A stretch of 64,000 nucleotides of DNA. Source: Candidatus Hermodarchaeota archaeon. GTDB taxonomy: Archaea; Asgardarchaeota; Lokiarchaeia; Sigyniarchaeales; SOKP01. The notes beneath the pieces are model-generated. The model saw only the letters and a list, made by a program, of their open reading frames with translations. It did no database searches and was not told the origin of the DNA. The DNA lies in contig JBHLLG010000011.1 in the NCBI GenBank assembly GCA_048885925.1, positions 9,062-73,061 of the forward strand, read 5' to 3'. A program made the position numbers and the translations under genes. Below are positions 15,156 to 24,513 of this stretch, piece after piece (position 1 is the first letter of the stretch; every line of letters begins with the position of its first letter).

Positions 15156-15437
15156 ATGTTTTTAATATTTTAATTTCAATATGGTTAATCTATTGCTTTT
15201 TCTTGCCATAATTCATTAAATGAATATTAGACTAATAATTTGCATTTATTCTCTCCTGAAAAAAAGGCATTCATGAAAAACCAAGAAATCATCTTGCAGA
15301 GGGAAGACACATAGGGATTATTTATGGGATTTATCAAATTTTTATTTGATTAACAAATTAAATTTATTCTATATCAACGTTTTTTCTTTTAATTTTATCT
15401 TTTATTAGTAAATTAGAAAAATTAGCTTCTTAAAGTA

Positions 15438-16712
15438 TTATGTAACGTCGATTGATTCCCCACACTTAGGACAAACGATCTTCTTCTTTTTAGGATCTAT
15501 ATATCGCACCACAGTGTTACATTTTCGGCAAAACGTTCCTTTAGATCCCTTATCATATTTATTTCCTATGCAAATATTAACTCGGTCTAGTTCCACATAT
15601 TCAGGAGCACTTTCCTTCATGAATCTTGTAGCAAACTCATCAGGACCATTACCCATAAGAAAATCCATTTCTTCCCGATAAATTGGCATAACTTGAAGAA
15701 AATATACTGGTTTACGTCCAATTAGCAATTCACAGAAAGTGGGAGACAATTCTTTATAAGGAAACTTAAACAAAAATGCACATAATTTAGTATTGTTAGC
15801 AAAAGGTACCGGAGGATGCCCGTTTCCAAAAGTATGCCCTATTGAGAACCATTGCCGATTTCCATGTACGTATTTAACCAATCTAAATAATTTATCGATT
15901 ACCCAGTAATATTTATCTTTTTTTACTGATTTTAGAGGTAAAGGCCAATCTGGTGATAACAACATAAACAATTCAGCACAGGTAGGTTCTGCCATTGAAG
16001 GTGCCATCATTGGATATGCACTCATACCAGAGGTAACCAACACCCCATACTTTCTGTGATCATCAGGAGGAACAATATGCAACTTTATGGGAATCTGAGG
16101 AATTTCATTATCGGTCAAAGTGTTATTAATCTTTCCAATATTGGCCTCTATATGTGTTGTAATAAATTGGGTTTCTATTTGAGATATTTTTATTTGTAAG
16201 GGATTAGCTTTTTTAAGAGCTTTTTCACGAGATATTTTACCATCGTTCATCTGTTTCACAATATCATCTTTCTGTTTTGATATTTTCAGCAATTCTGCAA
16301 GTATGGGATCAGTTTGATAAACGTTTTCCTGACCAAAGTATTCATACTTTCTGCCTTCCATCATTCTTTGGTACGATTGTAAAGAGACTAATATTGAATT
16401 TTGAGGATCATGGAATGTATGTTTATTCACATCAATTCGCTCATAAATTGTTGCCTCCGGAGCGTGAGATACTTTAAACCTAATAAACTCTCGAAATGCG
16501 CTCTTTATCGAATCTACACTTAATGCTTTTTTATTTGGAAGATCGTCAATTAAATCCGGATATGTGTAGGGAGCAAATTTAGACACAATACAATTATTTC
16601 CCTCCTTACCTTCTTTATCATCGAAGATATCGAAGTCTCTCGGATCTCCATATACACGTCTTTTTTCAAACTCTATTGCTAATTGATCGAAATCATTATA
16701 GTCGATCAACAT
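15438..16712 (-). CDS. Suppressor-of-fused (SUFU)-domain protein with C-terminal zinc ribbon
   Basis: LVTSGMS, ELFMLL, GHTF, FLQVMPIYREE; CRKC...CPKCG. Confidence 0.75.
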   Translation of the reverse strand: MLIDYNDFDQLAIEFEKRRVYGDPRDFDIFDDKEGKEGNNCIVSKFAPYTYPDLIDDLPNKKALSVDSIKSAFREFIRFKVSHAPEATIYERIDVNKHTFHDPQNSILVSLQSYQRMMEGRKYEYFGQENVYQTDPILAELLKISKQKDDIVKQMNDGKISREKALKKANPLQIKISQIETQFITTHIEANIGKINNTLTDNEIPQIPIKLHIVPPDDHRKYGVLVTSGMSAYPMMAPSMAEPTCAELFMLLSPDWPLPLKSVKKDKYYWVIDKLFRLVKYVHGNRQWFSIGHTFGNGHPPVPFANNTKLCAFLFKFPYKELSPTFCELLIGRKPVYFLQVMPIYREEMDFLMGNGPDEFATRFMKESAPEYVELDRVNICIGNKYDKGSKGTFCRKCNTVVRYIDPKKKKIVCPKCGESIDVT

Positions 16713-22295: not shown

Positions 22296-23093
22296 TCATT
22301 TAACACAAAAGATTACATGCTCTAAGGGAGTTTCGATTCTGTGTTTCCGTAAATCTTCTTTATGATTTTCTATATACAATGGATCCGCAGTCCAATTTTT
22401 CAATGCTGCAATAGCATCATTAAATTCTAAGTGAAGTCCGGTTTCTAAATATCTAACTGTAATGTCTTTAAATCCTACTTTATGCATTAGAGCGGCCAAT
22501 TCATCAGAATAAGGTGAAAACCAAGTAGGTTTTGGTAGAGATGTTTCTAAAGAATGCATATCTGCTTCAATAAATAATTTCTGTGAAATATTTTCATATG
22601 CAGAAGAATATTCAGCATGTGCCATTTGACCCTCTGTTTTCAAGACTCTATAAAATTCATTAAGAGCTTTTTCAAGCCCCACTCGATCAAGATCACAAAA
22701 TAAATCATTTGAGAAAATGAAATCAATGCTACTATTTTTAATAGCATCAAGCTCTCTTATGTCTCCTTACATAACGGTAATTAAGTTTTGAAGCATAGTA
22801 TGTTGTATTTTTTTCTTTAAAATATCTACACTCTCAGAATATGAGCCAACTGAAAGATCATAGGCTATTACTTTAAAATTTTTAATCTATTTACTAATTT
22901 TCTTAGTAAAAGGAATTCTTAGTTGACCCTCACCACATCCTACCTCAAGGATAACAGATATATCGAGATTAATGTTTTCTAAAATGAAATCTGCCAGTTT
23001 ATCACGAGTATTTATAGATATAATCCACTGAAGAATGTTCTTCCTTGTTTTATAAGGTTTTTTAAATTAAAATCCAATAATTTTGTATTTCAT
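22296..23093 (-). pseudogene. Class I SAM-dependent methyltransferase, disrupted
   Basis: Motif I ILEVGCGEGQL near 22930-22955; ALNEFYRVLK; internal stops and a frameshift. Confidence 0.7.
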
Positions 23094-23220
23094 AAGAGTA
23101 ATTAAAATGCGACAAAAAAAATTAGTTAACTAATTATGTTAATGGGATATTTTAATAACCAATTAATAGTTTTATTTAAATATAATTTCATCAAAACATA
23201 AATTGTTCATACTTAACTGT

Positions 23221-23550
23221 GTGAACGTCGAGAAGAGGTATTGTTACCTCAATACATTGGAACCGAAAGGTATTCGTAGCGATATGAAAGAAAATTGTGT
23301 GTAAAAGCGCAATTAGAACTAAAATATAAACCTTTAGGCTTATATTCGGTGTTCAATCTTACCAAATCGCAAGAATTGGAAAGGTTATCGAGAGATAACA
23401 CCATTTATAGAATAGTAAAATATTTTACAAATGGTATTTCTTTCAACGACGCCATTTGAATTATGTACTGAGTATCTCTTCATTATACGTGAAGAGAAAC
23501 AATACTGTTGCAATGAACGCCCTTAGGTTTTCAATTGCAACTTCTCGTCC
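23221..23550 (+). ncRNA. Candidate large structured non-coding RNA (~330 nt, family unrecognised)
   Basis: Terminal helix CGAGAAG/CUUCUCG, at least 8 hairpins, GAAA/GCAA/GAGA tetraloops, long-range UGAAAGAAA/UUUCUUUCA; no ORF of 60 aa or more. Confidence 0.65.
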
Positions 23551-23703
23551 CTTCTTTATTTTCTACTAAATCCCTATCATTTCATATTAGTAGAGATTTT
23601 TTCTTTTTAAAACGAAATCATTAATAATAATTAAATTCAGAAGAAAGTTTTAATTAATTTTATTATTTTTTCAATCAATAAAATTTCGAAACTTTGTTAG
23701 AAT

Positions 23704-24513
23704 TTGAAAAAGTTAACTTCCAGAAGATTTAATTTTAGGATAGATAAAATCCTCAAAAGATTGCCTGTTTTTGGTAAACTCCTTACTAGTTTATTTGGTA
23801 TCTTTGAATTGTATCTACTTGAATTATTTCGCAGAATTGACAAGAGATTTAACATCTATAGTTTTGGTATTATTAATAAATATATTTTAAGGGGGCGATG
23901 GGGAGGAAGAGTTGTTCCTTTAAATACAAATATCAGTATTGATTCAAAATTCGTCTCTTCTCGAGAAGTTCTAGAAATTCTATATCGTTCGAATGTTGCT
24001 GGGATTAGTTGGTGTTATTGTAGAGCAGTACAACGAAAATATGAAGAACCCAACTGTGAGAATCCCTTATATACTTGTATTCATCTTAGTTTTGGGAAAT
24101 CACTTTATGAAATCCCTTACAAATCATATAATCTTAAGAAAGTATCAAAAAAAAAAATTGAACGATTGTTAGAAGAATGTGATAAAAGAGGATTGATTCA
24201 TCAATTAATTTATTTTCCAAATCCGCAATTCTATTACTTAATTTGCAATTGTTGTCCATGCTGTTGCGTGGTTTTAAATAAATTTCTTAAAATTGGCGCT
24301 CCACAAATGATTAAGAGTGATTTTATAGCAAAAACAGACTTAAATACGTGTATAAGCTGTGGCACTTGCGAAAACTGGTGTTATTTTAACGCAAGATTAT
24401 TACAAAACGGAAATTTATTTTTTAATTCTAGTAGGTGTTTTGGATGTGGCATTTGTGTCTCAAAATGTCCAAATAATGCTATAATTTTAATTAAAAAAGA
24501 ATCATCCAATTAA
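23704..24513 (+). CDS. 4Fe-4S binding protein
   Basis: CYCR, ICNCCPCCC and two CxxCxxCxxxC motifs. Confidence 0.85.
   Translation: MKKLTSRRFNFRIDKILKRLPVFGKLLTSLFGIFELYLLELFRRIDKRFNIYSFGIINKYILRGRWGGRVVPLNTNISIDSKFVSSREVLEILYRSNVAGISWCYCRAVQRKYEEPNCENPLYTCIHLSFGKSLYEIPYKSYNLKKVSKKKIERLLEECDKRGLIHQLIYFPNPQFYYLICNCCPCCCVVLNKFLKIGAPQMIKSDFIAKTDLNTCISCGTCENWCYFNARLLQNGNLFFNSSRCFGCGICVSKCPNNAIILIKKESSN

Follow-up and report, generated by a model that had tools for sequence, protein, structure and literature searches.

A probable stand-alone gene for a compactly folded non-coding RNA outside Rfam in a Loki-type Asgard archaeon

Positions 23221–23550 of the window, that is, the whole 64,000-nt stretch of DNA from a Candidatus Hermodarchaeota archaeon that was analysed, were originally predicted to hold a multibranched structured RNA of about 330 nt. 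Is this locus an RNA gene in its own right, and what could such an RNA do? The letters of the segment match the description given in that prediction. The interval 23205–23560 (+ strand), a stretch without protein genes, is very probably a stand-alone, single-copy gene of a compactly folded non-coding RNA of about 320–345 nt, which represents a family outside Rfam. The best explanation as a whole, with a probability of roughly 0.5, combines such a gene with a putative role of its RNA as the trans-acting scaffold of a lineage-specific particle.

Fold, strand and conserved structure

The + strand of the locus folds with an energy of −100.7 kcal/mol, compared with −64.5 ± 5.2 kcal/mol for 100 dinucleotide shuffles (z −6.93), and none of the shuffles was as good. 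The − strand folds as well as the + strand in the shuffle test (z −8.61), so folding energy alone cannot choose between them. The strand is indicated by the paired alignment columns, where 199 GU/UG cells against 39 AC/CA cells identify the + strand as the RNA strand, in agreement with the original argument from G-U pairs. The computed GC content of the RNA is 34.5% (about 35% had been counted by hand) versus 29.1% for the whole window. Three local open reading frames (42–54 codons) are intact in just 3, 1 and 3 of 19 homologues; judging by these reading frames, broken in most homologues, the RNA appears to be non-coding.

BLASTN finds a single full-length copy of the RNA (70–80% identity) in 18 of 59 relatives, all of the same genus. 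RNAalifold returns a multi-branch fold from the 19-sequence alignment. The reference alignment, A2, was made from the 19 sequences by MAFFT and trimmed to the two strands of the closing helix P1, and its structure was derived by ribosum-scored alifold. It comprises 108 pairs in 15 helices, and 94.4% of the cells are paired, compared with 38–44% when the partners are slid by 1–3 columns. Changes on both sides occur in 33 pairs, a number attained by none of 500 shuffles, which give 16.7 ± 2.5, so that the Asgard homologues supply the covariation that had been suggested as a check. For 32 model-aligned sequences including the short type described below (A5), 94.3% of the cells are paired and 49 pairs change on both sides versus 24.4 in shuffles (0/500); for 27 long-type sequences including a second genus (A7), the values are 93.4% and 47 versus 21.9 (0/500). 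Because A5 and A7 were fitted to the model, their pair counts are biased in its favour; A2 is free of this bias. Overall, 93–94% of the cells pair in 19–32 homologues against 37–46% with slid partners. The sequences are close kin, and the shuffle controls therefore overstate significance. The conserved RNA structure is real. The z-score, the covarying 108-pair fold and the Rfam result given below uphold the prediction of a multibranched RNA of unrecognised family, and the supported structure contains 10 of the 11 helices originally listed.

The two ends of the RNA pair, as predicted, in helix P1 (CGAGAAG, 23229–23235, with CUUCUCG, 23541–23547). Five of its seven pairs are invariant in the 32 sequences and likewise in the 27. 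Since the other helices covary, this invariance points to a constraint on the P1 sequence itself, beyond pairing. Inside P1, helix P2 is formed by GGUAUUGUU (23237–23245) and AACAAUACU (23498–23506). It covaries: among the 32 sequences one pair is G-C in 15 and A-U in 14, another is U-A in 17 and G-C in 11, and a U-A pair becomes A-U in the second genus. The 5' strand of P3, UCAAUACAUUG (23249–23259), pairs with 23462–23471; 4 of its 11 pairs change on both sides, one being C-G in 17 sequences and U-A in 14.

The next element is the small hairpin ACC-GAAA-GGU (23262–23271), which was also foreseen; its loop is of the GNRA type in most members, and four species have AACC-AUC-GGUU instead. The 5' strands of P4a, P4b and P5 (23273–23293), with partners at 23437–23459, close the head domain and correspond to helices 5–7 of the A2 structure. 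The predicted long-range helix UGAAAGAAA/UUUCUUUCA (23285–23293 with 23437–23445) closes a five-hairpin head and is also present in the minimum-energy fold. The head of the long type (23293–23435) consists of hairpins H1–H5 (23293–23314, 23315–23355, 23358–23383, 23384–23399 and 23400–23435), helices 8–13 of A2, which are 92–99% paired, each with both-sided changes. The originally proposed hairpins AAUUGUGU/GCGCAAUU (23293–23314), AAUAUAAACC/GGCUUAUAUU (23323–23346), CCAA.UC-GCAA-GA.UUGG (23358–23383) and GUUAUC/GAUAAC (23384–23399), as well as the long stem 23400–23435, are all retained in it.

On the 3' side, the hairpin P6 (UCUCUUCA/UGAAGAGA, about 23475–23497), likewise recovered, changes on both sides in all five modelled pairs in the 32 sequences, and its size differs between the genera. 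P7 (GUUGCAAUGAAC GCC CUUA GGU UUUCAAUUGCAAC, 23507–23540) had been proposed as a GUUGCAA/UUGCAAC hairpin. Its inner seven pairs were tested and are supported, with 88–93% of cells paired and both-sided changes in 2–6 pairs; the outer stem is read by eye. The GAAA/GUAA and GCAA loops are kept as GNRA in the family; for the predicted GAGA loop, most relatives have AAAC.

The local hairpin GAGGUA-UUGU-UACCUC, proposed in the same list, can form in 15 of the 19 long-type sequences. It is broken in G035, G008, G012 and all the short-type members, and its strands belong to the covarying long-range helices P2 and P3, so it was rejected as a conserved pairing. Tertiary pairs and pseudoknots were sought by a scan of all column pairs in the 19 kin sequences; the top signals outside the structure are scattered single columns and are phylogenetic noise.

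Promoter, transcription and genomic context

A promoter module consisting of (C)GACAAAAA, TAATAA, TTAATAG and TTTAAATA precedes the RNA in every member examined, with the G of GTTCA exactly 22 nt further on. Here the distal motif CGACAAAAA lies at 23110–23118 (+). It is found upstream of the TATA box in most members with both head types and whatever the upstream gene, and its spacing is longer in the window genome. The elements TAATAA (23153–23158) and TTAATAG (23163–23169) are kept in sequence and spacing in the long, short and second-genus members. The TATA box TTTAAATA (23175–23182), originally noticed as a TATA-like element, is conserved and replaced by TTTATATA in a few members. The fixed 22-nt spacing, together with the usual archaeal distance from TATA box to start, gives a predicted transcription start at G 23205.

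From this position the RNA would begin with the leader hairpin P0 (GUUCAUACU-UAAC-UGUGUGAAC, 23205–23226). P0 shows some compensating changes, is doubled in the short type and is absent in G013 and G026. In the two species lacking it, the 22-nt spacer after the TATA box leads directly into GTCGAGAAG or GUCGAGAAG. Two copies of the distal motif, CGAC(A/G)AAAA, precede the promoter in L016 and L020, the loci of these two species.

A search of the 3.9-Mb window genome for the combined module TAATA..TTAAYAG..TTTAWATA gave this one occurrence and no other, and the promoter of the genome's SRP RNA gene is without the module. At the other end, P1 is followed by UCCCUUCUUU and a T-rich tract (23548–23565), matching the U-rich tract originally noted. 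All types share this arrangement of 1–3 bases, CC and a U-run after P1. Archaeal transcription terminates at oligo-T, and on this general knowledge the tract is a probable terminator.

The window genome has one copy of the RNA gene, and so does each relative that has it, with the exception of a tandem pair in G024. Dispersed copies, which had been named as the mark of a MITE, are absent from its own genome and from the relatives. The G024 pair (contig C76; L063, 1501–1743 and 2013–2255) consists of two short-type copies 270 nt apart, each with its own TATA box and leader.

The neighbourhood varies between groups. In close long-type members a small membrane protein is encoded upstream and a zinc-ribbon protein downstream on the opposite strand; short-type members have another conserved neighbour pair, and divergent long-type members share neither. 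Synteny is stable within each group, the long and short groups do not share any neighbour cluster, and the divergent long-type and short-type members have no neighbour in common with the window locus. Between the membrane-protein gene and the RNA, the window has a SAM-methyltransferase-like gene (22296–23030, −) with in-frame stops TAG (22887–22889) and TAA (22767–22769). It is probably a pseudogene, as an intact homologue of 246 aa in L010 has ordinary residues at these positions.

Parts of the stretch are present in 13 RNA-labelled runs from 7 studies. Contigs from the RNA libraries of four studies cover 23230–23522, 23231–23521, 23246–23453 and 23340–23547, the last ending with the 3' strand of P1; each differs from the window by one letter, and the same four libraries hold further contigs from diverged relatives. 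This coverage, which had been proposed as a check, fits transcription in nature, bearing in mind that such contigs cannot show strand, ends or level and may derive from contaminating DNA. The flanks 22800–23209 and 23579–24000 gave no contig in the four libraries, which is no proof either way, given the filtering of the contigs and the use of this stretch in choosing the runs. The contig ends at 23225–23231 and 23521–23522 probably arose where the assembly graph branches, at sequence in common with relatives, and are not taken as RNA ends. One contig carries a loose end of 20 letters, presumably an adapter end, directly before 23226, 3 nt 5' of P1. It is a weak hint that some molecules might begin 3 nt before P1 with the leader hairpin removed. 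The promoter module, the single copy, the RNA-library contigs and the missing Rfam match together support the independently transcribed, undescribed large RNA that the original prediction envisaged.

The trunk, its heads and their distribution

The family is built of two parts. The trunk (P1, P2, P3, P6, P7 and a short CC-U-rich 3' tail) is almost fixed in sequence across the family. The window member has this trunk, with CGAGAAG/CUUCUCG and the CC-U tail, and 22 nt ahead of its predicted start lies the promoter TAATAA..TTAATAG..TTTAAATA; its head is of the long type, with five hairpins closed by P5. In the short type (about 241 nt), P1, P2, P3, P6 and P7 are kept and the 174 head positions are replaced by about 99 nt of unrelated hairpins, several of them capped by UUCG. 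P2, P3 and P6 covary between the head types in the 32 sequences. Members from the second genus are about 350 nt long; their P6 and P7 are enlarged, and P2 and P0 show compensating changes. G123 has a composite of 635 nt: within a single trunk it combines modules of the short type and additional hairpins with the five-hairpin head of the long type. An alignment of the 3' trunk only (A4, MAFFT) had inconsistent registers in P6 and P7 and was not used; the local ends of the covariance model R1 already span foreign heads.

Taken together, these variants could represent a natural plug-in RNA chassis, in which a near-invariant trunk with a dedicated promoter carries heads that can be exchanged or joined in series (241, about 322, about 350 and 635 nt). 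This reading is possible and considerably more doubtful than the gene itself.

R1, built from A2, has 323 positions and 108 pairs, and its E-values are rough owing to a shortened calibration. The window member, one of the sequences from which the model was built, scores 291.6 bits. Among the relatives, 23 of the 35 further genomes from the genus have the RNA according to R1, as opposed to none of the 24 from other families. When the phylum was sampled evenly, the family gave 12 positive genomes out of 25: 4/4 from this genus, 8/12 from the second genus and 0/9 from four other genera. No match was obtained in 125 genomes from 26 other families of the phylum. The 12 genomes of the genus without the RNA according to R1 include two rated 100% complete. 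A laxer re-search gave nothing significant in five of these 12 or in five genomes of the four sister genera (best E-value 0.09 in the latter). The RNA is thus either not essential to the lineage or diverged beyond the reach of the model in these genomes.

About 186,000 species genomes were searched with a strict 27-nt pattern from the 3' trunk. The 11 loci matched all carry Asgard labels (Promethearchaeota or Promethearchaeia, one Hodarchaeota), and 9 metagenome contigs match as well. The pattern matched nothing in a viral contig collection, which is a weak test for so strict a pattern. A 13-nt tail pattern gave 12 one-mismatch matches in five RNA-less genomes of the genus, i.e., the control level; the six inspected lie in apparent coding sequence and are without a P1 partner. 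The family, as found, is restricted to two genera of one Loki-type Asgard family. In G017, which also has a short-type copy, two adjacent weak trunk-like R1 matches (22.7 and 17.4 bits; L068, 1501–1825, G017:C86, −) may be a very divergent paralogue or chance.

The RNA family is uncatalogued. None of the 4227 families of Rfam 15 matched the whole window at the gathering score, and at E up to 10 the region 23000–23800 gave five chance-level microRNA/sRNA matches (best 23.5 bits against a gathering score of 59). Four short-type loci searched at E up to 1 gave none. The cmscan check proposed with the original prediction thus leaves its novelty standing. The covariance models of OLE, ROOL, GOLLD, raiA, HEARO and other large non-coding RNAs of Rfam matched neither the window nor the short-type loci. 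No published description of such an RNA was found in the full-text literature, supplements lying outside the search.

Proposed function and its alternatives

The proposal is a trans-acting RNA that forms the core or scaffold of a particle peculiar to this lineage. The invariant trunk would serve as a handle for a constant partner, either a protein or the processing/stabilising machinery. A trunk read by such a partner would explain why the sequence of P1 is conserved while every other helix covaries. The head modules would be self-contained units and, through conserved loops and internal loops, GNRA loops included, would engage a second partner or one another. A trans-acting RNA is suggested by its own promoter, the lack of a linked gene, the invariant closing helix with a U-rich tail and the conserved internal and GNRA loops. 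The exchangeable and concatenable heads and the patchy, lineage-restricted spread also point to a trans-acting RNA, one that is useful and non-essential. No protein gene travelling with the RNA was found among the neighbours. The scaffold role, with the trunk as constant handle and the heads as modules, is putative; it is favoured over its rivals at somewhat less than an even chance.

A comparable layout is known from Y RNAs and YrlA, which also have a sequence-conserved terminal stem formed by both ends, a U-rich 3' tail and a variable distal 'effector' module. The present RNA differs in being 3–6 times larger and in having no Rfam match. No match to the TROVE/Ro60 domain (PF05731) was found in the 95%-complete window genome, and control genomes did match; a Y RNA/Ro60 particle was rejected on the absence of this protein.

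Catalysis or self-assembly without protein fits the same data. If the RNA were a ribozyme, its active site, for self-processing or for the cleavage or ligation of another RNA, could lie in the conserved trunk junctions, with the head as a stabilising periphery, as in RNase P and group I introns. A near-invariant core, a variable periphery and GNRA loops are the pattern of large ribozymes, and the present RNA conforms to it; the loose contig end before 23226 might also mean that the leader is removed. However, no ribozyme or intron model matched, and no pseudoknot or tertiary covariation was resolved in the 19 kin sequences. Moreover, the leader hairpin is plainly missing in two species, and a single contig end carries little weight. 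A ribozyme is accordingly regarded as unlikely.

Defined homo-oligomers formed by the RNA without protein, with contacts provided by trunk and head as in ROOL, GOLLD and raiA, are likewise improbable. Such assembly would suit a large RNA with many helices and several GNRA loops that is confined to one lineage and lacks a linked protein gene, and the multiplication of modules within one molecule (G123) and the tandem gene pair could be read in the same way. Against it stand the lack of a conserved self-complementary loop, none being seen by eye in the alignments, and the lack of Rfam homology to ROOL, GOLLD or raiA. OLE, ROOL, GOLLD and raiA are large ornate orphan non-coding RNAs of bacteria and phages; a published account deals with naturally ornate RNA-only complexes revealed by cryo-EM (10.1101/2024.12.08.627333, PMC12286853). 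The RNA studied here resembles them: it is several hundred nucleotides long and has many covarying helices, it is limited to a narrow lineage, it forms a transcription unit of its own, and its function cannot be deduced from the neighbours. It differs in being archaeal (Asgard), in its lack of a match to their Rfam models, and in its construction from a trunk and exchangeable heads of two combinable types.

A remnant of a mobile element or virus, a domesticated RNA, or the guide or decoy RNA of a defence system could account for the patchy occurrence within the genus, the different genomic contexts of the divergent long, close long and short groups, the tandem duplication and the modular recombination of heads. 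But each genome has one copy, with none dispersed, and synteny is stable within groups. When the neighbouring reading frames were clustered, none beside the RNA was recognisable as a nuclease, transposase, reverse transcriptase or CRISPR gene, and the 27-nt pattern has no viral contig against 11 genome loci, all Asgard. This origin is held to be rather improbable, more so than catalysis or self-assembly.

The original prediction offered, as another option, a leader of the downstream 4Fe-4S gene, which would make the RNA a cis-acting element or riboswitch. In the window the next + strand reading frame (23704–24513) does encode a Cys-rich 4Fe-4S-type protein, which is the immediate neighbour in the window genome only. 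In the relatives the next gene differs and is often on the opposite strand, and the 4Fe-4S homologue is 1.1–3.4 kb away or absent; even here the reading frame lies at least 150 nt from the RNA, with the T-rich tract in between. The variation of neighbours between members shows that the RNA is not a leader of this gene, and the option is given very little credence.

Least probable of all is a very divergent housekeeping RNA (RNase P RNA, SRP RNA or a tRNA-/tmRNA-like RNA): the length of about 320 nt, the closing helix of the two ends, the multi-branch shape and the silence of the RNase P model in the 95%-complete own genome would suit it, but in 20 of the 23 relatives with the present RNA a canonical RNase P RNA is encoded elsewhere as well (E 1e-24 to 1e-40), the SRP RNA lies on another contig, ARAGORN is negative and the RNA is absent from most of the phylum. 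The archaeal RNase P RNA model (RF00373) gave no match in the window at the gathering score, none at 23000–23800 at E up to 10 and none in the own genome (181 contigs). The model finds canonical RNase P RNA in 40 of 60 relatives, including 28 of 35 of the genus (E about 1e-24 to 1e-40); in G006, for example, it lies at C1:1529701–1530023 and the present RNA at C1:1972642–1972966. Because relatives hold both RNAs, the own genome most likely lacks the contig with RNase P RNA through an assembly gap, and RNase P RNA was rejected as an identity of this locus. Like archaeal RNase P RNA, the present RNA has about 320 nt, ends paired in a closing helix, a multi-branched shape, GNRA loops and a conserved core with a variable periphery; unlike it, it has no model match, no P4-type long-range pseudoknot that could be found, and a lineage-restricted instead of universal occurrence. 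A separate observation concerns G016:C66, where two RNase P RNA matches stand head to tail (15325–15647 and 15651–15981; 130 and 91 bits, both above the cut-off), which may be a tandem duplication.

SRP RNA was rejected in the same manner: that of the window genome is at C1:322149–322451 (L001; 73 bits, E 3e-16), and RF01857 is silent at the present locus. The original statement that RNase P and SRP signatures are absent therefore stands. At 73 bits, the SRP RNA of this genome lies below the Rfam gathering score of 96.5 and would be missed by standard annotation. ARAGORN found no tRNA or tmRNA gene in 23000–23800, and the CC lies 1–3 nt after P1 without a fixed discriminator position; with ARAGORN negative and the CC variable, a tRNA/tmRNA was rejected too.

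Large, intricately folded RNAs are rare, and nearly all of those studied proved to have fundamental or unexpected roles. To our knowledge, very few are found in archaea beyond RNase P and SRP RNA. For Asgard archaea, the closest prokaryotic relatives of eukaryotes, the full-text literature searched yielded no description of one. The covariation-supported structure, the defined promoter and the presence in environmental RNA libraries provide handles for experiments, and the natural variants (long, short, composite, with or without the leader hairpin) already separate the trunk from the head. At 240–350 nt the RNA is also a compact target for structural biology. If the chassis reading is true, the archaeal relatives of eukaryotes would have, in this family, their first native class of large ornate RNAs, and this class could be a ribozyme, an RNA-only assembly or a flexible scaffold like the scaffold RNAs of eukaryotes. 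For work on enrichments of Loki-type archaea, the RNA is a candidate for an abundant transcript, and its partner could lead to a particle specific to the lineage.
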